Source: Candidatus Falkowbacteria bacterium | GTDB taxonomy: Bacteria > Patescibacteriota > Patescibacteriia > UBA11705 > JABHMO01 | DNA length: 64,000 bases | Direction of reading: 5' to 3' | NCBI GenBank assembly: GCA_016214755.1 | Contig: JACRNX010000031.1 | Location: 18,020-82,019 of the forward strand | Shown: positions 9,568 through 64,000 of the stretch, piece after piece | Position numbering within the stretch: position 1 is the first letter of the stretch | How the letters are laid out: each line of letters opens with the position of its first letter | Notes under the pieces: generated by a model | Told to the model about the DNA's origin: nothing | The model's input: only the letters and a program-made list of their open reading frames with translations | Databases searched by the model: none | Position numbers and translations under genes: made by a program

Positions 9568-9580
9568 AATAGCTGATGCT

Positions 9581-13955: not shown

Positions 13956-13956
13956 A

Positions 13957-16895: not shown

Positions 16896-16896
16896 G

Positions 16897-17337: not shown

Positions 17338-17369
17338 AAAAAAGTATTTAATTAAAAATCATTGAAAAA

Positions 17370-19237: not shown

Positions 19238-19238
19238 A

Positions 19239-21669: not shown

Positions 21670-21685
21670 AATATCTTCCTCGTCA

Positions 21686-24109: not shown

Positions 24110-24160
24110 ATTAATGATTTTAAAATATTTTCCGAAGGATATAGTCCTGCCCAATTGTTT

Positions 24161-26086: not shown

Positions 26087-26148
26087 AACTTTTTATTATC
26101 TAATCTTACACCTTTTTGCTTTTTTTCAAAAATAATTATCAACAGGCG

Positions 26149-28765: not shown

Positions 28766-28844
28766 TACCGCGTAGCCTTGCTACGAAATAAAATGGACGA
28801 AGCGAGTTCCTACAAATACCTCGGAACTCTGCTCCGAGGAACCT

Positions 28845-29996: not shown

Positions 29997-29997
29997 T

Positions 29998-30903: not shown

Positions 30904-30914
30904 AAAAAAGACGG

Positions 30915-31943: not shown

Positions 31944-31962
31944 AATTCCGTAATCAGCTCTA

Positions 31963-32634: not shown

Positions 32635-32637
32635 AAT

Positions 32638-33606: not shown

Positions 33607-33615
33607 AATATTTTA

Positions 33616-48367: not shown

Positions 48368-48381
48368 ATGATTTTAGTTTA

Positions 48382-51024
48382 CTAATTTAAATTCCCGTGA
48401 AATTCATTTAAGAAATTTGCTACCATGAGCGGTATCCTTTTACCGTTAAAGAAGGAATATTCCAAACTGTCTTGTTCGCTCTGCGTTGTTCTTGGATGTT
48501 TATAATATCTCATTGCCCACCAAAGGTCATTCAAGCGCGGGAGGTCATCTTCCGTGTACGTCCAAATTTTCTTTTTTAATTCTGGAATTATAAACGGCCA
48601 TTCTACTGCCATAGAAAAAATTTTATGGAGATAGTTTATTTGTCTTGCGTGAGGCACATTAAGAACAGTTCGATCGTGAAAACTAGGCGCCATTGAATCA
48701 AGAAAATCATCAGGGAGCTCTCCCGCCTCCCTCGCGATAGTATTTAAATGCGTTCCAGGATAAGGTGTGCAAATGCCAACCCAGGCAAAATGTGGCTGAA
48801 TTTCCGCATTTAATTCAATAGAATCAAAATCATTTTCCAGCTTTGTTGTAGGAATGCCAACCATGCTATGGGTAGTCAAATTAATTCCGTATTTCATTGC
48901 CGAGCGGCATCCCTGAATAATTCTATCATTTGATATTATCCGGCATAAGACATTTTTTCTAACATTTTCATTGCCGCTTTCCAAACCAACAAAAATCGCT
49001 TCGCAGCCATGCTTTGCCATTTGCTCAAAACTTTCATCATCGCGCGTTTCGAGTCGGCATGAACAGATGAAAGGTTTCGTGATTTTTCTTTTATATTCAT
49101 CAAGAAATAAATAGAGGGTTTCCTTGTTAGGAAAAAATAAATCATCGTGAAAATTAAATTTAGGCGGATCATATTTATCATTAAGATACTGAAGCTCTTC
49201 AATTGTATTTTTAATGCTTACATTCCATTGCTTGCCCTTGCCGGCATAAATTTCATTGTATTTCGAATTAAAACAATATGAACAATGATACAGACAGCCG
49301 CGCGATGCCATAATATTCATCGGCCCGGTTTTATCTTCGTGACGAATGAATAATTCGCGATCAGCCCAAGGAATTTGTTCAGATGGAATTTTATTGCCGA
49401 CAGGATTTTTTACTATTCTCCCGTTGTTTTTTATATGAAGGTTGGGAATGTCATTAAAATCCATTCCCTTTTGAACTCGCTTAGCAAGCTCGGCCATGGC
49501 AATTTCACCTTCGCCAATACAAATAATATCAATTCCGTCCTGTTCAAGTTCTTCGGGGAAAAAGGTTGGATGAGAGCCGCCAACAACGCAAAGGAAATTA
49601 AATTTCTCTTTTAATTTTTTAATAAGACGCCGACACTGAATATGTTCGTGAGCCGTGATATTAAATCCAACGATGTCAGGTTTAAAAGCCATCATTATTT
49701 TTTCTATGTCGTCTCCTAGATTAATCAACGCTCCTTCAACAATATGCCCGTCTTTCTTCAATACAGTTGATAAAATTTGCAATCCTAAGGGAATTTCCTT
49801 TGAAGCGCTTGCAAGCAATATTTTTACAGGGCCTTTTTCCTGCATGCTAAATTGCACTGTCGCTGGTACCTTTTTTTGTTTTGATTGTTTTAATGAGTCA
49901 ACCACATAATGCACTTGAGTTTCATCTAAATATAGGTGTAATGGCAATGACAAAATTTTTTCGTAGGCGTTTTCTGCAATTGGAAAATCGCCCATCCTGT
50001 AGCCCAACGTTTGATACGGCGCAAAATAATGCAGCGGCGTGTAATGAACGCTCGTTTGCACTCCGAGTTCGTTTAATTTATGATAGACGGCATCGCGCGC
50101 TAAACCAAAATCTTTTTCGATCTTTATCACGTAGAAATGCCAAGATGATTTGGCGTAATCTTTTTCATTCGGAATAGTGATGCCCTCAATGTTTTTTAAT
50201 AACTCAGAATATAGTCCGGCCAATTTTTTCCTAATCGCATTGAATCTTTCAACTTTTTTTAATTGAGTGATGCCGACGGCCGCTTGTCCTTCGCTCATTC
50301 GGCAATTATAGCCGACTTGAACGCAATCCCTGAACCATGGTTTCTCCAAAACTGCTGAACCGGCGTAATTGCTCAAATATTTGATTCCATGATTTTGAAA
50401 AAGTTTAATTTTCTCCATCGCCTCGACGGTTGAAGCAGTGACTATGCCGCCTTCGCCCAGCGTTGAAATGTTTTTTTGAGTGTAAAAACTATAGGCCGCG
50501 AAATGCTCAAACGAACCGATTCGTCGAGATTTATGCTCGGCGCCGATTGCGTGGGCCGCGTCGCTGATTACAGGCAAATTGTAATGAGCGGCTAAGTCCA
50601 TTATTTTATCCATATTAGCTGGATGACCTGAATAATGAACTGGCAAAATCGCTTTTGTTTTAGCGGTTATTTTTTCTTCTATCTTATCAGCGTCAATATT
50701 TAAAGTGTCAGGTTCGACATCAACAAAAATTGGTATCGCCTTTTCCAGCATAATGACATTGGCGGTTGCCACCCAGGTGATCGGCGTGGTGATAATTTCG
50801 TCTCCGGGTTGAATGTCAATTCCTTTCAAAGCAAGGTGGAGCGCGGTCGTACAACTGGAAGTTGAAAGCGCGTATTTAGCGCCTGCAAACGCGCTAAACT
50901 CGCGTTCGAATTGCTTAATCACGTCCCATTTATTGTATTCGATCGGTTTTTCCAATAGATCAATGATCGCTTTCTTATCATCATCTTCGTAAATGTTACC
51001 TCGCTGAGCAAAATAAACTTTCAT
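48382..51024 (-). CDS. fusion protein: DegT/DnrJ/EryC1-family aminotransferase domain + cobalamin-binding radical SAM domain
   Basis: N-terminal 390 aa are a fold-type I sugar aminotransferase (ITTPITWVATAN..., SFYTQKNISTLGEGG). Next is a B12-binding-like domain (VKILLASASKEIPLGLQILST...DIVGFNITAHE). Then IMASRGCLYHCSYCFNS (CxxxCxxC). 880 aa. Confidence 0.75.
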   Translation of the reverse strand: MKVYFAQRGNIYEDDDKKAIIDLLEKPIEYNKWDVIKQFEREFSAFAGAKYALSTSSCTTALHLALKGIDIQPGDEIITTPITWVATANVIMLEKAIPIFVDVEPDTLNIDADKIEEKITAKTKAILPVHYSGHPANMDKIMDLAAHYNLPVISDAAHAIGAEHKSRRIGSFEHFAAYSFYTQKNISTLGEGGIVTASTVEAMEKIKLFQNHGIKYLSNYAGSAVLEKPWFRDCVQVGYNCRMSEGQAAVGITQLKKVERFNAIRKKLAGLYSELLKNIEGITIPNEKDYAKSSWHFYVIKIEKDFGLARDAVYHKLNELGVQTSVHYTPLHYFAPYQTLGYRMGDFPIAENAYEKILSLPLHLYLDETQVHYVVDSLKQSKQKKVPATVQFSMQEKGPVKILLASASKEIPLGLQILSTVLKKDGHIVEGALINLGDDIEKIMMAFKPDIVGFNITAHEHIQCRRLIKKLKEKFNFLCVVGGSHPTFFPEELEQDGIDIICIGEGEIAMAELAKRVQKGMDFNDIPNLHIKNNGRIVKNPVGNKIPSEQIPWADRELFIRHEDKTGPMNIMASRGCLYHCSYCFNSKYNEIYAGKGKQWNVSIKNTIEELQYLNDKYDPPKFNFHDDLFFPNKETLYLFLDEYKRKITKPFICSCRLETRDDESFEQMAKHGCEAIFVGLESGNENVRKNVLCRIISNDRIIQGCRSAMKYGINLTTHSMVGIPTTKLENDFDSIELNAEIQPHFAWVGICTPYPGTHLNTIAREAGELPDDFLDSMAPSFHDRTVLNVPHARQINYLHKIFSMAVEWPFIIPELKKKIWTYTEDDLPRLNDLWWAMRYYKHPRTTQSEQDSLEYSFFNGKRIPLMVANFLNEFHGNLN

Positions 51025-53087
51025 AAATTAATTTTATTTAAATTTCGCACTTGATAAAATAAATTTTCTGGTGCGATTTGTTCCGACATCTTTCGGAGCG
51101 ATAGATTTTTCGAGTGGGATTTATATTGGTCGAATAAACTTTTAATTAAACTTTCCTGCGTGTCTGATAAATAGAATTCATATTGAAAGTTTCCGCAAGG
51201 CAAATCGTCTTTATGGCCAGATAAGCGCCAGGTTAAAATATCAAATTCAAACATTTTGATTTTTGAACGAATAAAATCATCGTTTGTTAAGTTAATTTGT
51301 AAGTTATTTGAAAAATCCAAGACATTTTGGCATTGTTTTAAAAATAAATCCGATTGTTTTGTCGCGGCTTCGCTAAAAATTTTCTTAGCGACTTGATAAA
51401 GGAAATCATTAAAAGCGGGTTGTTTTTCCAATAAAATCTTGTAAGTGTACAAATAATTTAATTTGCCGTAATCGCCGCTTCGGAGCCGCGCGAAATTTTC
51501 CTCACGCCGCCAATAATCAAAAAGTTCTTCTTTGGTATCAAACAATTCCAAATTATGATCGCGCGAAAAATCTTTATATAATTCGTTTATTTCATGCTCT
51601 GGCGATGTAATTATCTGACTGGCTCTTAGAATTACTTCTAGCGGATGAACATTTATTTTTTTAAATAAATTCAGGAAATCATAATACCATTTTTTTGACC
51701 ACATAAATTGAATCAAAAAATGGATGAAACGAAATGAACGTAAATCAGCCATTGACATGGTGCTTGTTTCCATAACATTCTCTTCGGCGTCGAACACTTT
51801 TCTGCCCTCATAAATGCCAAAGCTCATATCAAACAATCTCCAAGCCGTGCGGCGAACAAATCTATTTCTTGACTCCTGACTGTCTAAAACCGTTCCTGGC
51901 AGTAAATGCAAATTGTAATTGAAAATTTCCGTTTCCAAATCCATCATCCTTTTGTTTGTCTCAATATGGCTCTCTTTAGTTTCCAAAGGCAGTCCCAAAA
52001 TCAGTTCCGTGGACATACCCAGTTCAGCTTTCTTAAGTTCTTGATGCAGTTTAAGTAGCTCCGACCAAGAAATATTTTTCCTTTTGACCACATCTAGCGT
52101 CGGCTGATGCAGTGTTTGCATTGAGGCGCAATATTTTGTCAATTTGCCGAATTTTTTAATAATTTTCAAAAGCAATTCTGGATTTGATTTATTCCAACAT
52201 ATGTCCACATATCCTGGATAGCTGTATTTTTGACTGCATTCATAAATCTTGTCCGCGATATCAGCGTCTCTTGGGAAAAGACCAAAATTTGCGTCTGCTA
52301 ATTCCAATATTTTGGTTTTTGTGCAACGTTGGCCAATGTATTCAATCTCCAAAATAACGCGTTCCTTACTGAAAGTCGTCACCCTTTTTGATTTTTTCCC
52401 CCAAGCGCAAAAGGCGCATTCATAAGGACAGGAACGATTTGTTTCAATAATCGGAATGTACGGCTGATTGAAAAATTCATCCAACAATCCGGAAAGATAC
52501 GGTGAAGGAATGGAATCAAGATTAACGAATCCGTCAATCAATCCGCCAATCTGAACCGCATTTTCATTAAAGATGTTGTTGACAAGACATCCTGCAATCG
52601 TCTGCTGTCTAAATTTGTTCAAATCTAAATCACATTTTAAGAATTTATCAATAATATTCTTAAATCCAATTTCGCCGGAATCAACCACAAAAGCGTCGCA
52701 ATCTTGATGTTTAGAGAAAAATTTTTTTGCTCCTTCTTCGTTGGCGTTCAGGGAGCTAAATTCTGGACCGCCGCCGACAGTGAGCGTGTCCGGAGAATAT
52801 TGTTTGGTTATTTCAAAAATTCTTTTATTTAATTGATTGACCCAGCAGTAATAAGAGAGTCCGACAACTGTCGGTTTTTCGGCTTTGATGGCGCTGATAA
52901 TTTCAGCCGGACTTTTGAAAAGTTTAATTTCTGTTTTCGGATAAAATTTAAACAAATACGCCGCCACGCTCGCCACGCCCAGCGGGAAAGCCCAGGTGCC
53001 GACTTTTTCCCAATCATGTTCCAAACTGCCTAAAAATATTTTCATCTTTAATATTATTTTATTTGTCAGTCCACCGCAAAAAATCAT
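51021..53087 (-). CDS. cobalamin-binding radical SAM enzyme with about 400-aa C-terminal extension
   Basis: N-terminal B12-binding-like domain (KIFLGSLEHDW...TVVGLSYYCWVNQ), ETNRSCPYECAFCAWG rSAM motif. 688 aa. Confidence 0.7.
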   Translation of the reverse strand: MIFCGGLTNKIILKMKIFLGSLEHDWEKVGTWAFPLGVASVAAYLFKFYPKTEIKLFKSPAEIISAIKAEKPTVVGLSYYCWVNQLNKRIFEITKQYSPDTLTVGGGPEFSSLNANEEGAKKFFSKHQDCDAFVVDSGEIGFKNIIDKFLKCDLDLNKFRQQTIAGCLVNNIFNENAVQIGGLIDGFVNLDSIPSPYLSGLLDEFFNQPYIPIIETNRSCPYECAFCAWGKKSKRVTTFSKERVILEIEYIGQRCTKTKILELADANFGLFPRDADIADKIYECSQKYSYPGYVDICWNKSNPELLLKIIKKFGKLTKYCASMQTLHQPTLDVVKRKNISWSELLKLHQELKKAELGMSTELILGLPLETKESHIETNKRMMDLETEIFNYNLHLLPGTVLDSQESRNRFVRRTAWRLFDMSFGIYEGRKVFDAEENVMETSTMSMADLRSFRFIHFLIQFMWSKKWYYDFLNLFKKINVHPLEVILRASQIITSPEHEINELYKDFSRDHNLELFDTKEELFDYWRREENFARLRSGDYGKLNYLYTYKILLEKQPAFNDFLYQVAKKIFSEAATKQSDLFLKQCQNVLDFSNNLQINLTNDDFIRSKIKMFEFDILTWRLSGHKDDLPCGNFQYEFYLSDTQESLIKSLFDQYKSHSKNLSLRKMSEQIAPENLFYQVRNLNKINL

Positions 53088-54099
53088 CTAAACGCTTATC
53101 GCTTTGCAGCCGCTTTAATTGCAACAAGCGGTGGCAATGATAATCGCGAAACATTTGTTCGCTAAAATTTACTTCTCGAAAAAAATTAACCAGTTCTTCT
53201 CCACCTCGTTCCAAATTCCAAGCCGGTTTATAATAATCTTTTAACTGGTTTAAAATTTTTTTGAAACTGACGCGGTATGTTCGTGAATCGCGGCCGTGCT
53301 CACCGGTAAAAACCAATTCGCTCCCTTTAACAGCCTTTTGAGCAGCTTCAGCCAAATCGCGGACAGTGTAATTGCCATTTTCAATTCCCACATTAAATGA
53401 TTGTCCGGATATTAGCTCTCGCGGCGCCGTTAATCCGGCGATAAACGCGTTGCTCACATCTTGGACGTGAACAACCGGCCGCCATGGCGTGCCGTCGCTT
53501 TTGATTTCAATCTTATGAGTGGTATAGGCGCAAGCAACTAAATTATTAAACACAATGTCGCAACGGAGCCGCGGACTGGCGCCAAAAACCGTTGATGGTC
53601 TCATGCAGACGACAGTAAAATTTTCTGAACAGATTCCTTTTATTGCGCACTCTGCCTGCCATTTTGTTTTCGCGTACGCCGTCAAAGGATTTTTTTCACT
53701 ATTATCCTCATCCAGTTCCTCGCCGCTGTTTGCTATCCCGTACATACTTTGAGAAGACGAATAAACAAATCTTTTAATCCCATTTGCTTTTGCCAATTCG
53801 GCCAGTTTGACTGTTGCTCGAAAATTTATTTCTTCGGTTAATGCGGGATTTAATTCTCCGAGAGGATCGTTAGACAGAGCGGCGAGATGAATAATCGCGT
53901 CAATGCCCCGCAAATCTTCGGCGCAAACATCGCGAATATCTTTGATAATTTGTTTTACCGGATAATCAATTTTTTTCAATCCGCAATCCTGATAAAAATC
54001 CGAGTCATAGCCGATTACATTAAAACCGCCTTCTAAAAGTTTTTTAGACAAGATCGAACCAATATAACCAAGATTGCCAGTGAGCAAGATGTTTTTCAT
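53059..54099 (-). CDS. NAD-dependent nucleotide-sugar epimerase/dehydratase (candidate GDP-heptose dehydratase/epimerase)
   Basis: MKNILLTGNLGYIGSIL Rossmann motif and YAKTKWQAE (YxxxK). It sits immediately next to the heptose activation genes. Confidence 0.7.
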   Translation of the reverse strand: MKNILLTGNLGYIGSILSKKLLEGGFNVIGYDSDFYQDCGLKKIDYPVKQIIKDIRDVCAEDLRGIDAIIHLAALSNDPLGELNPALTEEINFRATVKLAELAKANGIKRFVYSSSQSMYGIANSGEELDEDNSEKNPLTAYAKTKWQAECAIKGICSENFTVVCMRPSTVFGASPRLRCDIVFNNLVACAYTTHKIEIKSDGTPWRPVVHVQDVSNAFIAGLTAPRELISGQSFNVGIENGNYTVRDLAEAAQKAVKGSELVFTGEHGRDSRTYRVSFKKILNQLKDYYKPAWNLERGGEELVNFFREVNFSEQMFRDYHCHRLLQLKRLQSDKRLDDFLRWTDK

Positions 54100-54109
54100 A
54101 AAATTAATT

Positions 54110-55303
54110 TTATTTGATTATCTCGACGGCTATTTGCCATAAATCCTTATCTGACGACACCAAAAAGGTTTTTACCTCGGCCGCTTCACCTGCCTGCCGG
54201 TCGGTTTCATCGTCACCGATATAAATCGCCTCGCTTAAATTAAGATGATGCTCTCGCGCTGCTTGGAAAAACATTCCTGGTTTTGGTTTCCGGCATTCGC
54301 AGTCATCGTCGCTTGAGTGGGGACAATAATAAATGGCGTTTACCTCGATATTGTTTTTCATCAGTTCCTCGTTCATGCGGCGATGAATGTCGTTCAAATC
54401 CTCTATGGTCATCAAGCCACGGCTGATACCCCGCTGATTTGTGACAATGTAAAAAACATATCCGTTTGATTTGAGCAGTTTTAACGCCGGGATAACCGAC
54501 GGCAAAAACTCAAACTCTTCCCATTTTTTGACATAATCATGGCTGGGCATTTTTTTATTAATTACGCCATCGCGGTCGAGAAAAATTACTTTTTTATGAG
54601 CTAAAAAGCTTTCCGCTCTCTTCAGATATTCAATGTTTGTTATCGGATAATAGGGATGGTCCGTTCGATAGCCGATTAATTGATTCTGTTCTATCAATTT
54701 TGGGAAGATAACAGTTTGAAACGAAAAGTTATCAGCCGGCATCATCTCCAGCACTTTCTTGTTTAGGATAAAAAAACCGATTTCCGTTCCGTTTAATCTT
54801 TCGTCTTGACGCGTTTGGTCATAAAAAATAACGCGTCCATCAGCGCCAACCGCAATATTGTTTTCAAATCCGTACTCTCCCGCGCCGTCTTTGTTATTAT
54901 AAACAGTTGTCATCGCCAACACGTTTTTTGAACGATAAAAATTCAGCATCTTCGGCAGATTCATCGGCCAATAATTATCGCCGTACATCACGAGAAACTC
55001 GTCGTGAAGCATGTCAGCAGCATTGTGTATCCGAGCGCCGGTTTCATCTTCAACCGTTCCAATGGAGTATTTTATTAGCAAGCCGAATTTGCTGCCGTCG
55101 CCAAAATATTCAGTGATTTTTTCCGCCAAATATCCCGACAAAATTACGACTTCTTCAATGCCATTTTTTTTAAGCAACTCAATTAAATACTCCAAAAAAG
55201 GTCTTCCGTTTATTGGAATCATCGGCTTCGGAATTGTCTCAGTTAGCGGCCTTAATCTTGCGCCTAATCCGCCAGCTAAAATCACTGCCTGTTTAACGCT
55301 CAT
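54110..55303 (-). CDS. bifunctional D-glycero-D-manno-heptose-1-phosphate nucleotidyltransferase (HddC-like) / D,D-heptose 1,7-bisphosphate phosphatase (GmhB-like HAD)
   Basis: N-terminal AVILAGGLGARLRPLTETIPKPM (sugar-phosphate nucleotidyltransferase). C-terminal VIFLDRDGVINKK ... YYCPHSSDDDCECRKPKPGM ... YIGDDETD are GmhB HAD motifs. The start is placed at the internal ATG 55303 (MSVKQAVILAGG), which leaves a 7-nt gap to the upstream stop; the track ORF begins at 55363. Confidence 0.75.
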   Translation of the reverse strand: MSVKQAVILAGGLGARLRPLTETIPKPMIPINGRPFLEYLIELLKKNGIEEVVILSGYLAEKITEYFGDGSKFGLLIKYSIGTVEDETGARIHNAADMLHDEFLVMYGDNYWPMNLPKMLNFYRSKNVLAMTTVYNNKDGAGEYGFENNIAVGADGRVIFYDQTRQDERLNGTEIGFFILNKKVLEMMPADNFSFQTVIFPKLIEQNQLIGYRTDHPYYPITNIEYLKRAESFLAHKKVIFLDRDGVINKKMPSHDYVKKWEEFEFLPSVIPALKLLKSNGYVFYIVTNQRGISRGLMTIEDLNDIHRRMNEELMKNNIEVNAIYYCPHSSDDDCECRKPKPGMFFQAAREHHLNLSEAIYIGDDETDRQAGEAAEVKTFLVSSDKDLWQIAVEIIK

Positions 55304-55310
55304 ACATGAA

Positions 55311-56309
55311 TTAAAAATGTCTGGAATTATAAATAATTTCACTGCCGTGAGACGAGAGTTCAACTTGCAATTCCTTTAAATCCGCTAATGCTTTCCTCAC
55401 ATTTTCATGATTTTCTGGCTTGCAATAGAAAAGTAAAAAACCGCCGCCGCCTGAACCAAGCAATTTCCCGCCTATCGCGCCCGCCTTGATTGCTCTTTCG
55501 TAATAATCATTAATTGCGTCATTGCTTATTTTACTCGCCAATTCTCTTTTTGCCAGCCAGCCCTGATGCAGAGTATTGCCGATATTATCTAAATTATTTT
55601 GCTTTAATTCTGAACGCAATTGTTCGGCATATCCAACCATTCTGATTAATTTATTTCTAGTTTCTTCTTTAGTTAAAGTATTGGCTTTCTGCTCGCTTAA
55701 AACTGCTTTTGAGTCAGAGTTCATGTTTGTATTGAAAAGAAGCAAATTTTGATTTAAATAGCGCCTGCTTTTATCATCAAGATGAATTGGTTCGGCGATT
55801 ACATTGTCGTCGGCATTGAAACGAAAATAATTCAGTCCGCCAAAAGCGGCCGCGTATTGGTCTTGTTTACCAATCGGCTGGTCCAGCAACTCAATCTCTA
55901 TTTTGCAAGCTTGTTCAGCCAGCATCTCCGGCGAAACTTGAACACCTTTGTACGCGTAAAGAGCGTTTAACACGCCAACGGCAATACTGCTGGAAGAACC
56001 CAACCCTGTTCCCCAATCGTACGGCTGAACATCAGCCATATAAACAATATCTATTCCCTTATTAATGCCGCCAACAAGTTTGAGCGCTTCTCTGATTATA
56101 TTGTGCTGAATTTTTTCTATATCGTAAACCAATTCTGTTTGCGAATAGCTGACGCGGATGTAATCATCAAATTTTTTATTGACAATCACATAAACATATT
56201 TATTAATCGTCGTGCTGACCACGGCGCCGTATCCTGTTTGATAAAAGGCCTTAAGGTCAGAGCCGCCGCCGCTAAAACTCATTCTAAGGGGTGTGCGCGA
56301 AATAATCAT
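55311..56309 (-). CDS. GHMP-family sugar kinase (D-glycero-D-manno-heptose 7-phosphate kinase HddA-like)
   Basis: MIISRTPLRMSFSGGGSDL N-terminus, PxGxGLGSSSS ATP-binding motif (DWGTGLGSSSSIAV), and the GHMP C-terminal GAIGGKLLGSGGGGFLLFY. Confidence 0.8.
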   Translation of the reverse strand: MIISRTPLRMSFSGGGSDLKAFYQTGYGAVVSTTINKYVYVIVNKKFDDYIRVSYSQTELVYDIEKIQHNIIREALKLVGGINKGIDIVYMADVQPYDWGTGLGSSSSIAVGVLNALYAYKGVQVSPEMLAEQACKIEIELLDQPIGKQDQYAAAFGGLNYFRFNADDNVIAEPIHLDDKSRRYLNQNLLLFNTNMNSDSKAVLSEQKANTLTKEETRNKLIRMVGYAEQLRSELKQNNLDNIGNTLHQGWLAKRELASKISNDAINDYYERAIKAGAIGGKLLGSGGGGFLLFYCKPENHENVRKALADLKELQVELSSHGSEIIYNSRHF

Positions 56310-56322
56310 ATTTAATAAATTT

Positions 56323-57075
56323 TCAATTTAAATTTGGCCGATTGTTGACGCAGATAGCAATAAAAGAATAAGCGTCGCGCAGTTCTGTCGTAATTGGGTA
56401 ATTATCGGGCGATAACTCGTTTTGACCTGGAATGTAAAAAATTTTTCTCGTTAAACTGCAAATTGTTTTTGGCAAGTAATTCCTAATTTTAAATGGGTCA
56501 AAATGCCAAAGAAACCGCAGCCGCGCCGAACCGTCATTTTTTAACAAGCCTAGGACATTCAAGACCTTAAATTGCCTGGATAATTCTTCAACCAGCGTGA
56601 TTTTGTCATATTCGCGATAATGAACGGGATTTGTGTTTTTCGTTTTGGCAATGTTCGGCGTAATTACAATCAATGCGCCATTTTCTTTAAGGTGTTTTTT
56701 TATTGTTATTAAATATCTCTGGGGGTCAACCATTTGCTGAATCACGTCCACGGAAATTGCCGCCTCAAAATTTTTATCCGCCAAATCAAAATCATGCAAA
56801 TCCGTCAAAACGAACGAAGTATTGGCGATATTCAAACTATGCGCGATTTCAATCGCTTTTGCGTTTCCGTCTAATCCAACCGCTGACTGAAAATAGGGCT
56901 CTAACAATTTTATTGACCAGCCCGCGCCGCAGCCAGCATCTAATATTTTTTTTCCAAAGACAAACGGTATCAAAAAATTATGCTTTGCTTTATGGATATT
57001 AATTACAACGCTGTCGGTTGTTGCTTTGCCAACGCGCGTTTGTTCGTCTGATTTGGGGTCAATGATTTTCTTCAT
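56323..57075 (-). CDS. class I SAM-dependent methyltransferase
   Basis: ILDAGCGAGWSI motif I; 250 aa. Confidence 0.75.
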   Translation of the reverse strand: MKKIIDPKSDEQTRVGKATTDSVVINIHKAKHNFLIPFVFGKKILDAGCGAGWSIKLLEPYFQSAVGLDGNAKAIEIAHSLNIANTSFVLTDLHDFDLADKNFEAAISVDVIQQMVDPQRYLITIKKHLKENGALIVITPNIAKTKNTNPVHYREYDKITLVEELSRQFKVLNVLGLLKNDGSARLRFLWHFDPFKIRNYLPKTICSLTRKIFYIPGQNELSPDNYPITTELRDAYSFIAICVNNRPNLN

Positions 57076-57151
57076 GGGTTAATGTGGAATAATTATTGAC
57101 TTTTCACAATTAGATTGACAAGATTATCTCTTGGCGAGATAATGGAAGCAT

Positions 57152-57652
57152 ATGAACCATGCTCATACTCTTTCATTATCCCATCGGGATAGAACGGCCA
57201 TGGAGCGCCGGCGGCTTAAAGCCGCGAAGCTCTTCGCCAAAGGTCGTAGACAGGCTGATGTGGCCAGAACCCTCGGAGTTAGCCGTGAGGCGGTTCGCCA
57301 GTGGCATGATATCTGGAAAAAGAAGGGGAAGATTGCTTTGCAAAGCGCCGGCAAACCAGGTCCCAAGTCTCAACTAACGCCCGAAAAATTAAGATTAGTG
57401 AAGAAAGCATTGTTAAGAGGTCCGACGGCCCATGGATTTGCCACTCAGCTGTGGACACTTGAACGGATCGCGGCCATGATCAGGAAAGTGGCCGACGTTT
57501 CTCACGGTACGACGCGGGTGTGGCAGGTGTTACAATCTCTTAATTGGTCGTGCCAAAGGCCTGAAACACGCGCCCATGAACGAAATGAGGCGGCCATCCG
57601 CCGCTGGCAAAACACCGCCTGGCCGCGCATTAAAAAAAAGCAATGCGAATAG
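57152..57652 (+). CDS. IS630-family transposase OrfA (HTH DNA-binding part)
   Basis: RRRLKAAKLFAKGRRQADVARTLGVSREAVRQW helix-turn-helix. Ends just after the A8G slippery run at 57632..57640. Confidence 0.8.
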   Translation: MNHAHTLSLSHRDRTAMERRRLKAAKLFAKGRRQADVARTLGVSREAVRQWHDIWKKKGKIALQSAGKPGPKSQLTPEKLRLVKKALLRGPTAHGFATQLWTLERIAAMIRKVADVSHGTTRVWQVLQSLNWSCQRPETRAHERNEAAIRRWQNTAWPRIKKKQCE

Positions 57653-58206
57653 GCGCAAAATTGGTCTTCTGGGACGAATCCGGCATTTCGCAAAAAGCGA
57701 GCGTCCGGCGAACATGGTCTCCCAAAGGGCGCACGCCGGTTATTGTTTCGACCGGCTCATGGCGGTCGCGGTCGGTTATCGGCATTATTACCTGCACACC
57801 GCGCGGCAGAAAGCCGAAACTGTTTCTAAGGATTTTCAAACACGCCATCAAATATCCGGATATCATTCGATGCCTCAAAGAGCTGCACCGTCATGTCAAA
57901 GAACGAATAATTTTAATGTGGGACGGTTTGCCCGGTCATCGGGCACGCGCTACTCGTTTGTTTCTGATAACGCAGAGACACTGGCTCGAAACGCATCGTT
58001 TCCCCGCCTATGCGCCGGAGTTAAATCCGCCGGAATATCTGTTTTCCGCACTAAAATCCCGCAATCTTACCGGCCTACATGTGGCCACCATCGATGAAAT
58101 TGATGCCCACATTAAAATCGGCAAGCGTCGTCTCCAAAGGCGACCGGATATTCTGAATGGTTTTTTAAAAGAGTCGAGATTGTTTGATAAAGAGTTGTCA
58201 ATCTAA
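57643..58206 (+). CDS. IS630-family transposase OrfB (DDE catalytic part; probably expressed as OrfAB via -1 frameshift)
   Basis: VFWDESGIS ... LMWDGLPGHRA ... PAYAPELNPPEYLFSALK, the DDE/D motifs of the IS630/Tc1 superfamily. This frame is open from 57634, inside the A-run. Confidence 0.8.
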   Translation: MRIGAKLVFWDESGISQKASVRRTWSPKGRTPVIVSTGSWRSRSVIGIITCTPRGRKPKLFLRIFKHAIKYPDIIRCLKELHRHVKERIILMWDGLPGHRARATRLFLITQRHWLETHRFPAYAPELNPPEYLFSALKSRNLTGLHVATIDEIDAHIKIGKRRLQRRPDILNGFLKESRLFDKELSI

Positions 58207-59241
58207 TTGTGAAAAGTCAATAGAGCCGGGCAAATTCTGGTTGACAAGTTCTAATATGCGTTTTTCAATCAGCTCATCAATGGCCTTAACTTCGCCCGGC
58301 CAGCCCTGGCTGTAATCATGAAATATGATCGGCGCGCCATTATTTAAGTGCGGTTGAATATGCTGAAAAATTTCCATGATTTCATCGTAAGTGTGAAATA
58401 AATCAATAAAGGCAAAATCATATATTTCCTTGTTATCCCGCAGAAAATCTTGATATAACATTTTTTGAGGAATTATTACGGCCTTATATTCAGAATTAAA
58501 AGAAATATTCTTAATGAATTCGTCGTAAAAGCTCTCTCCGTATGTTTGCGCAAATTTTTCTTCTATGGCGATGCCTTCCCAACCAAAGGTATCAACTGAA
58601 GTGACTGAACCGCCGTTGTTTTTTAGTACGCCTTTGGCTAAAAAATGTGTGCTTTTGCCACAGGCCGGACCAAGCTCAAGAATTTTTTTGCCTTTTGTCG
58701 CCATAACAGCTTTTTCCAAATATTTTCCCTCTTCTAAAATAAATTGCCCCCGCCGGCTGGAAAAATAATCATACAACGCCAGCTCGCCCAAATCGTTGAC
58801 AGTCGCCATACCGTTTTTGCGGATCGGTTTGAATGCGTTGTAATAATAATTGTCAAAATACCAATCAAATTCAATCGGCGAGTACGACTCGCAATATAAA
58901 CCAATCTCGATAAAATCCTGTGGCTCGCTTAACCCGGAAGCGATCAATGCCTGCGATATTTCTTCCCAATGTCTGGAGGCGATGACAATCAGACATTGAT
59001 TTGACCTGTTGACGCTTTCTTTACGAAATTCTTCAAAGCGAACAATTTTGATTTTGTCAAGATGACAATTTTGGGCATTCTGGTCAATAAATCCTTGAAT
59101 TTGAACATTTAATTCACTTTGCAGAGCTGACTGCAATCGTCCACCCATAAACCCGGCGCCGTAGATCCAAATCGGTCTTTTATTCAAATCAAAAAATGAA
59201 TTTAAAATTTTTAATACACTATCACCGTTTTCGTTTGTCAT
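58198..59241 (-). CDS. SAM-dependent methyltransferase (class I, O-methyltransferase-like C-terminal domain)
   Basis: KKILELGPACGKSTHFLAKG motif I and acidic motif II region (IDLFHTYDEI). The last six codons plus the stop (DFSQLD*) are encoded inside the IS right inverted repeat. Confidence 0.6.
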   Translation of the reverse strand: MTNENGDSVLKILNSFFDLNKRPIWIYGAGFMGGRLQSALQSELNVQIQGFIDQNAQNCHLDKIKIVRFEEFRKESVNRSNQCLIVIASRHWEEISQALIASGLSEPQDFIEIGLYCESYSPIEFDWYFDNYYYNAFKPIRKNGMATVNDLGELALYDYFSSRRGQFILEEGKYLEKAVMATKGKKILELGPACGKSTHFLAKGVLKNNGGSVTSVDTFGWEGIAIEEKFAQTYGESFYDEFIKNISFNSEYKAVIIPQKMLYQDFLRDNKEIYDFAFIDLFHTYDEIMEIFQHIQPHLNNGAPIIFHDYSQGWPGEVKAIDELIEKRILELVNQNLPGSIDFSQLD

Positions 59242-59249
59242 AATTTACT

Positions 59250-61016
59250 TTATGTTATGGCTGAAATAATTCTCTCGGCTACTCTGGTCGCGCCGTTCGC
59301 ATCTATGGCGCCAACTAAACCTTTTTCAATTTGAGACATTTTTGCAAACGCGTTAAAGGTTTTGTGAAATTGTTCTTGGTCAATCTCGCCAATCAGGCCA
59401 AAATATTTAAAATTTTTTGTCTTCAAAAAATTTTTATTTAGTTTTTCTTCGTGTTGCGCTATCGCCAAAACCGGAACCTGCAAATAAAACGCTTCGTAGA
59501 TTGATTGGCCGAATCCCAATATCACGAAATGACAGCCAGCCAGCGCTTCGGCGAACGATTTGTTGTCGCCGAGAACAAAGGTATTCAGATTTAATTTATT
59601 GATTTGCCTTTTCACCTGCGATCTTTTTTTATTAAACGGGCCCAGATATACGCCGAATGGCTGTTTGAATCCCCCGTTATCCAAAAACTTTAGAATTTTC
59701 CAAGTTATGTTTTTAGGGTCAGCGCCGCCACCGCAAATTAAAACATATTTCCCCTTTTTTCTTTTTTGCCTTTTAATCTCGTTTCGGATGATCGCGTATT
59801 GCGCGCCGAAAATTATATTTTTCCATTTAAATGGAATCACGCTGTGGCCATTGGGAATAATGTACAAATCCGCGCCATTTACTTTTTTGTCTAGCCGATC
59901 AATGACAATAACCTTTCTCGCGCCACGCCTGATTTGTTTAATGCTGACATCAAACAGCGTATCAATTATTACTCCAGTAGCGTTGTTTGACTTCAAAAAA
60001 TTATAAAAATCATTTTCTGAATCTATGACAAAATAATTAAAATTATTTTCAGACAATGTCTTTTCCGTCTGTTTGTTTCGTCGGGCGACAAAAGTTATTC
60101 CGCAAAAATATTTGTCTTGCAATTCCTTGGCCAGCGCCATCATTCTTTGCAAATGGCCCAGCCCGATTTTTTCAGAAGCGTCAGTTCTGATTATAAATTT
60201 ATGACTAACGTCTATTTTTGATTTTTGCTTTACTTCCGCGTTGATCAACCACAATTTTTTGTCCTTTTTATAAAGCGCGATTACTTTATTCAGATTAATA
60301 AGCTCTTTTCGATTTTTCCATAAACGATTGTAAATTTCCCTCATAAATCGCAAGTCGGAAATTGTATCAACCGAGAGTCGGAGCATATGTTTATTAAAAG
60401 GAGCGCGCAAATTCACTTCAAACCATTTGAATTTCTCAGAATTTTCTTTTAAATAAATATTCAAATGTTCTTTATGATAGGGCTGACTCGCATTCTGATA
60501 CTGGACTTCAAGCGCGGACATCTTGCAGACATCAAGCCCTTCGTGCTGGCATTGCTGGCCACTTTTTAATTTGGCTGAATCAGCTTTTGTCTTTATCATT
60601 CCCGTGACTACATCGTCAACAAATTTTGGGTCAATCAGCGGACAATCGCCGCAAATGCCGGCAATGATGTCCGCCTTTACCCATTTCGCCGCGGCCAGAA
60701 CGCGACCGACGACATCGTTGATATCGCCGTGATAACGAAAAACTCTGTAACCTATATTTTTGACATATTTTGCCAGCGGATTATCGGTTTTATCGCTCGA
60801 AGTAGCTAAAATTATTTCATCAATCGTTTTAGTTCTTTTTAAACGATCAAAAATATGCCAAATCATCGGTCGGCCGTTGATATCAATTAATGCTTTGCCC
60901 GGCAAGCGCGAGGATGACATTCTCGCCCTGACGATAGCTACAACCCGTGTTCTTTTTTCCATATGTCTCTTGTTTTTAACAATGGCCGCAATCCATCGCT
61001 CGGGTCTGCCCGCCAT
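59250..61016 (-). CDS. fusion: SpsF/PseF-like cytidylyltransferase + PseG-like UDP-sugar hydrolase (UDP-2,4-diacetamido-2,4,6-trideoxy-L-altropyranose hydrolase family)
   Basis: N-terminal VVAIVRARMSSSRLPGKALIDINGRPMIWH (CTP_transf_3 family). Central-to-C-terminal IIRTDASEKIGLGHLQRMMALAKEL resembles the PseG signature (IRADAS..G.GH..RC..LA). Overlaps the upstream NeuB-like gene by 79 nt; the alternative internal Met at 60962 reduces this to 25 nt. Confidence 0.65.
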   Translation of the reverse strand: MAGRPERWIAAIVKNKRHMEKRTRVVAIVRARMSSSRLPGKALIDINGRPMIWHIFDRLKRTKTIDEIILATSSDKTDNPLAKYVKNIGYRVFRYHGDINDVVGRVLAAAKWVKADIIAGICGDCPLIDPKFVDDVVTGMIKTKADSAKLKSGQQCQHEGLDVCKMSALEVQYQNASQPYHKEHLNIYLKENSEKFKWFEVNLRAPFNKHMLRLSVDTISDLRFMREIYNRLWKNRKELINLNKVIALYKKDKKLWLINAEVKQKSKIDVSHKFIIRTDASEKIGLGHLQRMMALAKELQDKYFCGITFVARRNKQTEKTLSENNFNYFVIDSENDFYNFLKSNNATGVIIDTLFDVSIKQIRRGARKVIVIDRLDKKVNGADLYIIPNGHSVIPFKWKNIIFGAQYAIIRNEIKRQKRKKGKYVLICGGGADPKNITWKILKFLDNGGFKQPFGVYLGPFNKKRSQVKRQINKLNLNTFVLGDNKSFAEALAGCHFVILGFGQSIYEAFYLQVPVLAIAQHEEKLNKNFLKTKNFKYFGLIGEIDQEQFHKTFNAFAKMSQIEKGLVGAIDANGATRVAERIISAIT

Positions 61017-61828
61017 TCACGGTCAATTGATTCGCTTTCCTTGCAACGTTTCACTCCGTCGCCGTCGCTAAGGGTGTAATCAGCTGTCAAATTAACATCT
61101 GCCTTGATGTCTCGGATAACTTTTTCAATTTGTTCCGGAAGCCAATTATATCCGCGCGCGAATTCTTCCCCTTTTCCGTCCAAATCCAAATGGAATTCTA
61201 TGCTTGAGGCCTGCCATCTAAACGCGGCGCGCGACAAAACTTTTTCATCAACGCTGTGATCTGACCAGCCGGCCAAACAGTTAAACATTTTTCTGTATGT
61301 TTCCAAGACCGACAAATTGCATTCAGCCGCCGGCGCGGGATAACTGGACACGCAATGGTACAAGGTGATTTCTTTGGCGTCGGATTTTTTTAAAATATTA
61401 ACTGCCTTAGCCACTTCTTCAGTATTGGCCATTCCTGTCGCGAGTTTAATCGGTTTTCCTGTCCACGCGCATTTTTTCAACAATCCCTCCCAAAGAATTT
61501 CGTATGACGCGATTTTAAAATAATCAACATAAGGCGCGAGAATATCCACTGCTTTCTGATAAAACGGCGTGCAGGCGAATTTCAATCCCAACCCGTGGCA
61601 TTCATCAGCCAATTTTGGAATAAATTCAACGGGCAATTCCCATTTTTTCCGGCTGCGATGCTCCTCGCTTGTGGCCAATATCTCGGACGCGAAAAGTTCG
61701 TCAATTTTAAATAATTGGAATTTAACGCCGTCGCAGCCGATTTTTTTCGCGATTTGGATAAATTCCAGACAGCGGCCGAGATTCTGGCTGTGATTGCTTG
61801 AAACTTCGGCGATGAATTCAACATTCAT
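60938..61828 (-). CDS. NeuB-family nonulosonic acid synthase (pseudaminic acid synthase PseI-like), lacking an obvious C-terminal SAF domain
   Basis: IAEVSSNHSQNLGRCLEFIQIAKKIGCDGVKFQ matches the NeuB/PseI/SpsE N-terminal TIM-barrel signature (AE.S.NH.G....A..MI..A...GADAVKFQ). Confidence 0.7.
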   Translation of the reverse strand: MNVEFIAEVSSNHSQNLGRCLEFIQIAKKIGCDGVKFQLFKIDELFASEILATSEEHRSRKKWELPVEFIPKLADECHGLGLKFACTPFYQKAVDILAPYVDYFKIASYEILWEGLLKKCAWTGKPIKLATGMANTEEVAKAVNILKKSDAKEITLYHCVSSYPAPAAECNLSVLETYRKMFNCLAGWSDHSVDEKVLSRAAFRWQASSIEFHLDLDGKGEEFARGYNWLPEQIEKVIRDIKADVNLTADYTLSDGDGVKRCKESESIDREWRADPSDGLRPLLKTRDIWKKEHGL

Positions 61829-61832
61829 AAAA

Positions 61833-63002
61833 TTAACAAAACTTTTTTATTATTGATTTCACATTCTCAATCAAATAACCTTGCTCATCGTCAGTCAATG
61901 AATAATAAATCGGCAAGCTAACGCATTCAGAATAATATCGGTCGGCGTTAATATATTTTTCAGCGTCATAACCTAATTTTTGGTAATACGAATTGCGATT
62001 GATCGGACGATAATGAATTTGCACTTTTATATTTTTCTCATGCAATTCGTCAAAAATTTGGCGGCGCTTGCTGATTAAATAATCATCGGCCAAACGCAAT
62101 ATATAAAGATGCCAAGCCGGATTGTATTTGCCTAAATCATAAAACGGCAATTTTATTCTAGGCTGTAATTCTGCAAAGGCCTCATTATATCGTTCGGCTA
62201 TCATCCGCCGTCTATTTAAAAACAATCCGACTTTTTTTAATTGGGAAATGCCCAGCGCGCACTGAAAATCAGTTAACCGATAATTGAATCCCAATTCGCG
62301 CATATCATAGCACCAAGCGCCTTCAGCCGCTGTCTCCTCATCTTTATAAATACCGTGACTGCGCAGCGCGCATAATTTTTCATATAATTTTTCACCATTG
62401 GTTGTAATCATTCCACCCTCACCGGTTGTCATGAGTTTCACCGGATGAAAACTAAACACCGCCATGTCTGAATGTTCGCAACTGCCGACTTTATGCCATT
62501 TCCCGTCCGCGAAATAATCCGCGCCCAGCGCGTGGCAAGCGTCTTCAATCACGATTAATTTATTCTTTTGGGCGGTTTCATAAATGCTGGGCAAATCAGC
62601 GGGCAATCCAGCAAAATGGACAGGAATAACCGCTTTGGTTTTTTCAGTGATTTTGTTTTGAATCTGCTTCGGGTCAATATTTATATTATTATAATCAATA
62701 TCAGCGAATATCGGCTTAGCGCCGACGTATAAAAGGCAATTCGCGGTCGCGACAAAACTGATCGGCGTGGTAATCGCTTCGTCGCCATACTCGAAACCAG
62801 CGGCTAACGCGGCGAGATGGAGCGCCGCCGTGCCCGATGAGACCGCAATCGCGAATTTTACGCCGCAATATTCAGCGAACGCGTTTTCAAATTCTTTAAC
62901 CCTTGGCCCTTGGGTCAGCCAATCTGAACGGATAACTTCAATCGCGAAATTAACATCCGAATTATCAATAAATTGTTTGCCGTACGGTATTATTTTGTCC
63001 AT
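61833..63002 (-). CDS. pseC: UDP-4-amino-4,6-dideoxy-N-acetyl-beta-L-altrosamine transaminase (PseC-type DegT aminotransferase)
   Basis: IPYGKQFIDNSDVNFAIEVIRSDWLTQGPRVKEFE near the N-terminus is the PseC-type signature. Fold-type I aminotransferase, 389 aa. Overlaps pseB by 38 nt. Confidence 0.8.
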   Translation of the reverse strand: MDKIIPYGKQFIDNSDVNFAIEVIRSDWLTQGPRVKEFENAFAEYCGVKFAIAVSSGTAALHLAALAAGFEYGDEAITTPISFVATANCLLYVGAKPIFADIDYNNINIDPKQIQNKITEKTKAVIPVHFAGLPADLPSIYETAQKNKLIVIEDACHALGADYFADGKWHKVGSCEHSDMAVFSFHPVKLMTTGEGGMITTNGEKLYEKLCALRSHGIYKDEETAAEGAWCYDMRELGFNYRLTDFQCALGISQLKKVGLFLNRRRMIAERYNEAFAELQPRIKLPFYDLGKYNPAWHLYILRLADDYLISKRRQIFDELHEKNIKVQIHYRPINRNSYYQKLGYDAEKYINADRYYSECVSLPIYYSLTDDEQGYLIENVKSIIKKFC

Positions 63003-63972
63003 TTTCGTATTTGTAAATAATATGCCTCAATTCTTCATCAGAAAGCCAGCGATCGTTATTGTTGCTGTGATATCCCTCAAAATCTTCGGGCAAAGATTTT
63101 TCATCATTGGCAACCGGACCGAAATGAGCCGCCAACGGCCTCATAACGAACCGATCTGCTTTTTCAAACGTGTATCTCGCGTCATCCGCGGTCACAAGCG
63201 TCTCGTGCAATTTCTCGCCCGGTCTTATGCCCGTGATTTTAATTTCCGAATTAGGCGCGATCGCTTTGGCGAGATCAACGACGCGCATGCTCGACAATTT
63301 AGGCACGAAAACCTCTCCTCCGCTCATCATGCCCAAACAATTAATCACAAATTCAACTCCTTGCTCCAATTGTATCCAAAATCGCGTCATTCTAACGTCA
63401 GTCACGGGAATGGGCAATCCTTGCATTTTACATTCGTGAAAAAATGGAATCACGCTGCCGCGCGAACCGAACACATTGCCATAGCGTACGACGCTGAACA
63501 TCGTTCTGTTTGGACAAAATTTATTGGCCGCGATGAATATCTTTTCAGCGCACAATTTCGTCGCGCCATACAAATTCACCGGACTCGCCGCTTTGTCAGT
63601 GCTGATGGCGATAACCTTTTCAACATTTTTATCAATGGCGGCGTTAATTACATTTTGCGTGCCGATTATATTTGTCCTAACCGCTTCAAACGGATTATAT
63701 TCCGCGGTTGGAACTATTTTAAAAGCCGCCGCGTGAATCACAATGTCAACATCATCAAAGGCGCGATGCAATCTTTCCGGATCGCGGATGTCGCCGATGA
63801 AAAATCTCACGTCAGCGTGTTTGAATTTTTCCGCCATTTCATACTGTTTCATTTCGTCGCGGCTGAAGATAATGAGTTTCTTCGGGCGATACTTGGACAG
63901 GACAATTTCCGTGAATTTTTGTCCGAACGAACCGGTCCCGCCGGTTATTAGTACGACCTTATGGTCAAGCAT
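62965..63972 (-). CDS. pseB: UDP-N-acetylglucosamine 4,6-dehydratase (inverting), PseB/FlaA1
   Basis: VLITGGTGSFGQKF, RFFIGDIRD, HAAAFKIVPTAEYNPFEAVRTNIIGTQNVI and ISTDKAASPVNLYGATKLCAEK are near-canonical PseB/FlaA1 motifs. Confidence 0.9.
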   Translation of the reverse strand: MLDHKVVLITGGTGSFGQKFTEIVLSKYRPKKLIIFSRDEMKQYEMAEKFKHADVRFFIGDIRDPERLHRAFDDVDIVIHAAAFKIVPTAEYNPFEAVRTNIIGTQNVINAAIDKNVEKVIAISTDKAASPVNLYGATKLCAEKIFIAANKFCPNRTMFSVVRYGNVFGSRGSVIPFFHECKMQGLPIPVTDVRMTRFWIQLEQGVEFVINCLGMMSGGEVFVPKLSSMRVVDLAKAIAPNSEIKITGIRPGEKLHETLVTADDARYTFEKADRFVMRPLAAHFGPVANDEKSLPEDFEGYHSNNNDRWLSDEELRHIIYKYENGQNNTVRQTIY

Positions 63973-64000
63973 TTTTTTGTAATTATTTATTAAGTTTGGT

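Follow-up and report, generated by a model that had tools for sequence, protein, structure and literature searches.

The present analysis concerns a window of 64,000 nucleotides (nt) from an uncultivated Candidatus Falkowbacteria bacterium (contig JACRNX010000031.1 of assembly GCA_016214755.1, positions 18,020 to 82,019), in which an insertion sequence (IS) is situated between two methyltransferase genes of a glycan-related cluster, in an orientation opposite to that of the host genes. Taken as a whole, the locus is very probably explained by an intact IS630 insertion, which encodes a recoded transposase, for which the empty site is known, and which now stands in the place of 34 bp of host DNA. 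The flanking proteins have been deposited as Candidatus Falkowbacteria MBI5077319-22 on an 87-kb contig, whose annotation treats the halves of the transposase as two genes.

Anatomy of the Element

The element spans 57096..58220 (1,125 bp) and harbors only two open reading frames (ORFs), OrfA and OrfB, without any passenger genes (Table 1). Its inverted-repeat arms at 57094-57121 and 58195-58222 are 100% complementary over 28 nt, which are made up of a TA and a 26-nt repeat. An earlier sequence-only reading of this DNA had described the terminal repeats as perfect over 26 bp, and identity at 26 of 26 bases was indeed measured, with divergence starting immediately inside. When up to three mismatches were allowed, the 26-mer occurred at only two places in the window, against an expectation of zero derived from 100 shuffles. 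The content of guanine plus cytosine (GC) amounts to 50.3% in the element versus 40.5% in the remaining window, where the top other 1,125-nt stretch reaches 48.5% (z = 3.5); the same reading had called the element strikingly GC-rich, which is right in direction and generous in its adverb. All of its coordinates proved to be correct when re-checked on the sequence, and so did the spacing of 20 nt between the left repeat and the start of the next gene at 57075.

Table 1. Features of the element, the neighboring genes and the junctions (a slash marks a junction; aa, amino acids).
Feature	Position	Strand	Remarks
Left flanking TA	57094..57095		TA of the methyltransferase stop codon TAA in the empty allele
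Left inverted repeat (IRL), 26 bp	57096..57121	+	TTGACTTTTCACAATTAGATTGACAA; repeat comparison
Right inverted repeat (IRR)	58195..58220	-	identical to IRL; repeat comparison
Right flanking TA	58221..58222		34 bp of the empty allele absent directly beyond (58222/58223)
OrfA, 166 aa, MBI5077320.1	57152..57652	+	helix-turn-helix DNA-binding part; ORF and Pfam
OrfB frame (-1), MBI5077321.1	57634..58206	+	DDE catalytic part; ATG 57643; ORF and profiles
A8G run	57632..57640	+	A_AAA_AAG heptamer (57634-57640) in OrfA register
Transposase promoter-like site	57115..57143	+	TTGACA, 17 nt, GATAAT; 11/12; -35 inside IRL; consensus match only
Outward promoter-like site	57092..57121	-	-35 TTGTCA in IRL, 18 nt, -10 AATAAT; 10/12; consensus match only
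Chimeric methyltransferase, 347 aa, MBI5077322.1	58198..59241	-	codons 341-347 and stop (58198-58221) from TA and IRR
Downstream methyltransferase, 250 aa	56323..57075	-	IS now between its upstream neighbor and this gene
Junction, empty allele			GGCTCATTAATCC...CAACTAATTATTCC
Junction, window right	58223/58222		GGCTC/TATTGAC; GGCTCTATTGAC
Junction, left, shared			GTCAA/TAATTATTCC; GTCAATAATTATTCC
Junction, alternative right (TA-AT type)			GGCTCATTATTGAC

Transposase and Family Membership

The fused OrfAB product of 351 aa matches the NCBIfam profile NF033545 'IS630 family transposase' (transpos_IS630) with 179.1 bits at a cut-off of 100 (E 1.3e-52), and the match forms one continuous stretch (residues 20-322, profile positions 1-292 of 299) which spans the junction of the two frames. 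Pfam assigned HTH_23 (18-59), HTH_33 (98-155) and, at 90 bits, DDE_3 to the fusion, in line with the IS630 assignment made from the sequence at the outset. The acidic triad is composed of D175 (FWDESG), D258 (MWDGL) and E295 (NPPEY) with a D-82-D-36-E spacing, and the DES and NPxEY motifs are kept in the relatives. The profile match, the helix-turn-helix (HTH) plus DDE architecture, the terminal repeats and the length within ~1.0-1.4 kb are all those of an IS630 element. Among 5.8 billion proteins, the closest full-length ones are 40-47% identical and the closest ones corresponding to OrfB only are 59-61% identical, while a terminal TTGACTTTT is common to the ends of the relatives. Judged by these features, the element is an intact IS630 (IS630/Tc1/mariner) insertion sequence without a close relative on record, namely a new element rather than a copy of one already described.

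Members of the IS630 family insert only at TA, which is duplicated, and cleavage takes place at their 3' ends and 2 nt within their 5' ends (PMC2170065). By analogy with the family, cut-and-paste transposition by the encoded enzyme would be expected here as well (PMC2170065). TA is present at both ends of the element, the left one being native to a stop codon and the right one adjoining the 34-bp loss described below. Among the relatives for which DNA was available, TA adjoins either end of L004, L005 and L007 and is also seen at both ends of L003.

Empty-Site Allele

At 90% identity, the upstream methyltransferase clusters with one other protein, P0127 (351 aa), which is derived from the Logan assembly of the run SRR12113407. 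Its contig (L001) matches window 58223..64000 at every one of 5,778 nt, continues with 34 nt lacking from the window (ATTAATCCATTGTCGTCTAATCAAAGACAGCAAC), and rejoins the window at 57095 (TAATTATTCCACATTAACCCATGAAGAAAA) for a shared 30 nt; a search for the 34-mer of this contig found it nowhere in the window. Another contig of the run (L033) is 100% identical to window 56937..44110 over 12,828 nt, and SRR12113407 is therefore taken to hold the same strain. L001 stops exactly 30 nt beyond the last allele-specific base. Since Logan assembly graphs are presumably built with k=31, this end may represent a branch in the k=31 graph, so that both alleles would be present in the run.

In the sense of the methyltransferase, the empty allele reads ...CCC GGC TCA TTA ATC CAT TGT CGT CTA ATC AAA GAC AGC AAC TAA TTATTCCACATTAACCC ATG..., and the occupied allele reads ...CCC GGC TC/TA/(IRR...IRL)/TA/ATTATTCCACATTAACCC ATG.... 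Compared with the empty allele, the window contains 1,127 bp, i.e. one TA and the element, in place of 34 bp, and the TA beside IRR is followed on the plus strand by GAGCC; in the empty allele, that GAGCC is found 34 bp farther away. The flanking TA/TA duplication proposed by the sequence-only reading consequently stands as far as TA is found on both sides, but it is not a clean duplication, 34 bp of host DNA having been lost.

The target of the insertion would have been the TA within the stop codon of the methyltransferase, with cut-and-paste as the mechanism, and the 34 bp would have disappeared right after or right before that event. Such a course may comprise two events in either order, namely an insertion into TA and a deletion that removed 34 bp across 1 nt of microhomology, or alternatively one aberrant integration. 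A hypothetical allele in which the deletion came first is absent from the 90%-identity cluster of the methyltransferase. The simple removal of the IS together with one TA, which would give an ancestor ending in ...PGSNYSTLTHEENH and a stop, was refuted by the real empty allele. Recombination of two insertion alleles, or an attack of the IS end on the TA of ATTAAT, predicts GGCTC-AT-TA-(IS), which is 2 nt over the window junction; these scenarios, rejected for the window allele, do fit the flank of a further Logan sequence (L002) discussed below.

When the contig index was queried for exact copies of the GHMP kinase and of both the chimeric and the downstream methyltransferase, no match was returned, and L033 was reached via another gene. 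The latter contig starts at 56937, inside the downstream methyltransferase, at the GC-rich S-adenosylmethionine (SAM)-binding motif (GCTGGCTGCGGCGCGGGCTGG), which places the Logan break ~130 nt past the insertion (56937..57066). A k-mer common to other methyltransferase genes, a drop in coverage or another polymorphism are possible causes of this break.

Recency and Origin

No substitution separates the window from the empty-allele contig in the 5.8 kb of flank, and none was observed in a further 12.8 kb downstream in the same strain. The recency of the insertion is well supported, since the flanks are free of substitutions, neither ORF is disrupted and the element's Logan unitig equals the window copy. 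The insertion thus appears to be both recent and polymorphic in an otherwise identical strain background. The sequence-only reading had proposed a recent horizontal arrival, of which the recency is upheld by way of the empty site, the perfect repeats being weak evidence when taken alone; for the horizontal part, the 10-point GC excess is all that points to a foreign origin. Transfer from a higher-GC member of Patescibacteria is plausible.

The repeats of the relatives are identical over their first 9 to 24 terminal positions. Their GC content varies from 40 to 55%, being close to that of the host flank in L006 and L007 and ~10 points below that of the flank in L004. The element L007 (JACRFR010000027.1), which is flanked by TA, is followed within ~30 nt by a tRNA-gene-like sequence on the opposite strand (1102..1200). 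A literature search on IS elements in Patescibacteria retrieved nothing specific.

Two-Frame Transposase

The OrfB frame is closed by a TAA at 57631-57633 and open only from 57634, and the overlap between OrfA and OrfB covers 17 nt (57634..57650), within which the change of frame must fall because OrfB opens no earlier. The codons of OrfA at the run are ATT AAA AAA AAG CAA, whereby A_AAA_AAG is in register. A -1 fusion reads ...WPRIKKKAMRIGAKLVFWDESG, with ...WPRIKKK/AMRIGAKLVFWDESG... around the junction. Single-ORF relatives are colinear through the junction with ...WPRIK(K/R)KA..., as exemplified by P0014 (WPRIKKKAAAEGRTIVFVDESG), and the position of the frame change is thereby fixed.

The DNA of five relatives was compared, of which L003-L005 are the three closest and were obtained as Logan contigs of ~1.13 kb, and L006 and L007 were identified by a genome scan with the OrfB subgroup. 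L006 originates from Patescibacteria group bacterium UBA2591 (54% identity) and L007 from a Candidatus Liptonbacteria metagenome-assembled genome from groundwater (51% identity); the next matches of the genome scan belong to Spirochaetia, Terriglobales and Streptomyces at 33-40%. In all five (51-61% OrfB identity), OrfA and OrfB lie in 0/-1 frames with the junction at a homologous purine run, which is A5G5 in L003, A6G4 in L004, A5G5 in L005, A7G4 in L006 and A6G5 in L007. The slip heptamer is A_AAA_AAG in the window and L004, and A_AAA_AGG in L003, L005, L006 and L007. The earliest start codon listed for the OrfB frame of L006 is found ~275 nt in. Both the colinear single-ORF relatives and the same -1 layout in the five split ones speak for the -1 junction at A8G, as it had been placed by the sequence-only reading.

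From these comparisons, the split looks like programmed recoding rather than decay, and a recent lesion was dismissed because the -1 layout persists across highly diverged relatives. The active enzyme would be the 351-aa OrfAB fusion produced via a -1 event at the run, while OrfA alone might serve as a regulator. The event could proceed through ribosomal slippage on A_AAA_AAG, or through slippage of the RNA polymerase with the addition of one A. The OrfA/OrfAB design is known in the IS1, IS3, IS5 and IS630 families, and both frameshifting and transcriptional realignment occur among IS630 members (PMC5009743).

Replaced C-Terminus of the Upstream Methyltransferase

The methyltransferase of the window ends in ...PGSIDFSQLD (...NLPGSIDFSQLD and a stop), the stop codon being placed inside the right repeat. 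The native P0127 ends in ...PGSLIHCRLIKDSN (...NLPGSLIHCRLIKDSN), like its homologues, four of which (36-50% identity) end in PGSL(I/V)(H/E)... with an invariant P-G-S-L. The lost 34 bp encoded the last 11 residues, in place of which 7 residues and a stop are now supplied by TA and IRR. That the C-terminus of this enzyme is derived from the IS, as suggested by the sequence-only reading, was corroborated by the empty-site comparison, in which P0127 lies in the 5,778-nt identical flank. The damage to the gene is ascribed to the deletion, because a simple insertion would leave the methyltransferase almost intact (...KDSNY and a stop).

An AlphaFold model of the native protein, built on a 5-sequence alignment, gave a mean predicted local distance difference test score (pLDDT) of 71.5, with 86-95 for the last 30 residues. 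In this model, residues 342-346 (IHCRL) form the final beta-strand, which is paired with strand 330-334. A fold search against the PDB returned family-3 O-methyltransferases as the best matches (E ~1e-9 to 1e-7, probability 1.0), including the sugar O-methyltransferases MeT1, SpnH and CalS11; a PDB sequence search with the native methyltransferase produced insignificant matches only (E 0.3-0.6). The model suggests that the enzyme is probably impaired by the loss of its last core beta-strand.

Downstream Genes and the Glycan Cluster

In the empty allele, the stop codon of the upstream methyltransferase precedes the downstream ATG by 17 nt, and the two methyltransferase genes are therefore presumably co-transcribed. 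Minus-strand transcripts in the window face 1.1 kb of antisense IS, so that expression of the downstream genes would need read-through of the element or a weak hybrid promoter at its left end. The -10 hexamer AATAAT of the outward promoter-like site is assembled from the IS end, TA and host AT, and ends 16 nt before the ATG at 57075. A cut-off of 55 kb of downstream genes from their promoters, as raised by the sequence-only reading, is unproven because gaps of 285-475 nt further downstream (e.g. 16895-17370 and 6459-6900) could hold independent promoters.

All ORFs of at least 150 aa in 636..57075 and 58198..63972 are on the minus strand, except those of the element and one plus-strand ORF. 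The latter (62767..63951, 394 aa, GTG start) lies over the minus-strand PseB-like and DegT genes and is in all likelihood a spurious shadow ORF. With this ORF and the IS set aside, the minus strand of window 636..63972 forms one co-directional run of ~50 glycan-related genes. Genes of the nonulosonic-acid type include a PseB-like (Polysacc_synt_2) dehydratase, DegT aminotransferases, NeuB and cytidylyltransferases (CTP_transf_3), and those of the heptose type include a GHMP kinase, a nucleotidyltransferase-HAD (NTP-transferase-HAD) and an SIS isomerase. In addition, the cluster contains at least 7 methyltransferases, B12-radical-SAM and SPASM radical-SAM enzymes, 3 ATP-grasp ligases, a 1-deoxy-D-xylulose-5-phosphate (DXP)-synthase-like protein, several glycosyltransferases of GT2, GT4 and GT1, and a weak Wzy_C (O-antigen ligase) match below the Pfam cut-off. 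Patescibacteria genomes are typically ~1 Mb in size, and the cluster represents a very large investment for such a genome.

Three unusual fusion proteins are encoded on the minus strand, which combine a DegT aminotransferase with B12-binding and radical SAM domains (48382..51024, 880 aa), an NAD epimerase/dehydratase with B12-binding and radical SAM domains (21686..24154, 822 aa), and a cytidylyltransferase with a class I/II aminotransferase (24161..26086, 641 aa). ORFs of 631, 658, 540, 279, 360 and 183 aa in 26149..28044, 13957..15933, 33616..35238, 35210..37070 and 46282..46833 of the minus strand have no Pfam match at E <= 1e-5. Several gene starts in the cluster are uncertain, because the NCBI annotation, the Logan calls and the longest ORFs differ in their start codons; the alternatives are 417 vs 397 aa for 54110..55363, 688 vs 674 for 51021..53087, 412 vs 399 for 45047..46285, 332 vs 323 for 55311..56309, and 588 vs 556 aa for 59250..61016.

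Junction Variant and Alternative Explanations

The Logan unitig of the element (L002, SRR12113407_3512202) is 100% identical to window 57092..58222 and carries an identical 30-mer (ATTA plus inverted repeat) at each boundary. Its end, ...GTCAA-TA-AT (positions 1130-1133), differs from the TA-GA of the window (58221-58224). Such an end may be either a longer variant at the locus or another copy in an AT/TA/AT site. A second Logan contig with OrfA and OrfB also exists.

Several observations count against the interpretation adopted here. Because L002 ends in TA-AT, the right junction of the window has no independent view, and another junction or copy is present in the run. The 34-bp loss keeps the TA/TA pair from proof as a target duplication. 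Exact searches for a second copy or a donor with the 26-nt repeat gave 0 matches in 596 Gb of genomes and 0 matches in JGI metagenomes; as no second repeat copy was found, mobility is inferred from one polymorphic site, and the empty-site allele is the sole direct sign of movement. With respect to recoding, the A_AAA_AGG of several relatives is a poor ribosomal slip site, no RNA structure is conserved at the slip site (RNAalifold consensus -4.15 kcal/mol with 0 compensatory pairs in 6 sequences), and neither a stimulatory RNA structure nor a Shine-Dalgarno-like signal was found, a feature which is non-obligatory. The alignment underlying the methyltransferase model is shallow. Promoter-like matches numbered 10 versus 6.1 +/- 2.6 in shuffles, without significant enrichment, and the terminator scan of the host strand of the element yielded one weak 5-bp stem below the shuffle expectation, which was consequently set aside as evidence of polarity.

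The fusion might arise from transcriptional slippage, in which the polymerase adds one A on A8, rather than from a ribosomal -1 shift, an alternative that concerns the recoding step only and is quite possible, although we hold it to be somewhat short of even. The conserved feature is indeed a purine homopolymer pair (A5-8 G1-5) and not a canonical X_XXY_YYZ in register, no downstream stimulatory structure is conserved, and such realignment has been documented in a Roseiflexus IS630 element (PMC5009743). On the other hand, the classical A_AAA_AAG stands in the right register in the window and L004, no upstream hairpin is conserved either, and a stretch of 5-6 A gives the polymerase little length on which to slip efficiently. 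The copy might instead be dead, with the split being a recent frameshift mutation of a single-ORF transposase and self-mobility lost; full-length single-ORF relatives exist at 40-47% identity, homopolymer runs are prone to mutation and one copy only is known. We regard this as very unlikely, since the five closest relatives with available DNA are split -1 at the same codon position despite 51-61% identity and differing runs, no further interruption affects either ORF, the repeats match perfectly, and the insertion is recent with substitution-free flanks. Programmed recoding, by whichever slippage, is hence retained as the reading of the split.

The arrangement of the window could also owe something to misassembly or reflect a less frequent allele. 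The occupied allele might then in truth read GGCTC-AT-TA-(IS)-TA-ATTATTCC, a structure attainable if slippage over 32 bp between two TAAT repeats preceded the insertion, or if the IS end mediated a deletion reaching the TA of ATTAAT. This variant requires standard events only (the TAAT...TAAT direct repeat or a TA target) and agrees with L002, whose right end is TA-AT instead of TA-GA; if the window allele stood alone, moreover, that unitig would be expected to extend into both flanks, given that a repeat of 28 nt falls short of k-1 = 30 at the presumed k = 31. It is nevertheless considered unlikely, because no simple assembler error converts CATTATTGAC to CTATTGAC, both window junctions map to one locus, 34 bp apart, and the TA-AT flank could equally be another copy elsewhere in the community. 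A further proposal, which follows the sequence-only reading, is that the insertion acts as an on/off or remodelling switch of the surface glycan, with the polymorphism held by selection. In its favor, the site apparently occurs both empty and occupied in a background that is otherwise identical, the element lies within the co-directional cluster (ORFs of at least 150 aa, 636 to 57075, minus strand), a sugar-O-methyltransferase-like enzyme is altered in the beta-strand predicted to be its last, and an outward promoter-like site is present. However, promoter-like matches are at shuffle level and terminator-like ones below it, the 34-bp loss rules out a precise reversal, and a neutral or mildly deleterious recent insertion fits the data equally well, which together make such a switch decidedly improbable and any regulatory effect beyond an incidental one unlikely. 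It is likewise rather improbable that an autonomously active IS630 element is at present moving in a natural Patescibacteria population and brings about cell-to-cell heterogeneity of the glycan locus by disabling a sugar O-methyltransferase and altering, via a hybrid promoter, the expression of the genes that follow; if it were, more than one junction variant in one 36-bp spot (that of the window and that of L002) would imply a local hotspot or repeated IS-end-mediated rearrangement. The insertion of an intact, recoded IS630 element with replacement of 34 bp is accordingly preferred.

Significance

From the biological point of view, this is a routine IS insertion, and its value is a practical one. 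It documents at base resolution how an element transposed very recently in an uncultivated episymbiont lineage with small genomes, for which the ancestral allele is kept in a public run that holds the same strain. Three public annotations are corrected in all, as MBI5077320.1 and MBI5077321.1 are halves of one recoded transposase and the record MBI5077322.1 represents an IS-chimeric and, according to the model, probably impaired methyltransferase. In addition, the comparison delineates a small IS630 clade with a conserved -1 A/G-run recoding site, in which both organism-assignable relatives belong to Patescibacteria. The insertion may also be utilized as a marker to follow, at strain level, how a surface-glycan locus changes in groundwater communities.

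Comparison with Known Systems

The element is similar to IS630 of Shigella sonnei and ISY100 of Synechocystis in its ~1.1 kb length, ~25 bp repeats, TA ends, and paired HTH and DDE parts. The transposase of the latter two is encoded by one ORF, whereas that of the Falkowbacteria element is split over two frames; it further differs from them in its Patescibacteria host, the 34-bp target loss and a best full-length relative of 47% identity. The formation of hybrid promoters and of adjacent deletions belongs to general IS biology. As in IS-generated hybrid promoters, the terminal repeat contains an outward-facing -35-like hexamer, and a -10-like hexamer is completed at the junction, but here the promoter is a predicted 10/12 consensus match. 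As in IS-adjacent deletions, host DNA beside one IS end has been lost, but, unlike in a transposase-made adjacent deletion, the end point misses a TA of the empty allele by 2 nt.

As regards recoding, the IS630 element of Roseiflexus reportedly undergoes the loss of a single nucleotide at a T5C5 motif, accompanied by a hairpin in the nascent RNA. The Falkowbacteria element resembles it in that the frame changes at a short run between the DNA-binding and catalytic parts (PMC5009743), and departs from it in a -1 change, equal to +1 nucleotide, at A8G (A5-7G4-5 in the relatives) and in that no conserved hairpin was found. With IS3 and IS1 elements (A_AAA_AAG or A_AAA_AAC), it shares the DNA-binding ORF, the -1 catalytic ORF, the A-rich heptamer and the fusion transposase (PMC5009743), but it belongs to another transposase family with other chemistry and combines a 17-nt overlap with no detected stimulatory structure. 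By analogy, the element would therefore resemble, in its mode of working, both the recoding subgroup of IS630 and the OrfAB elements of IS3 and IS1.

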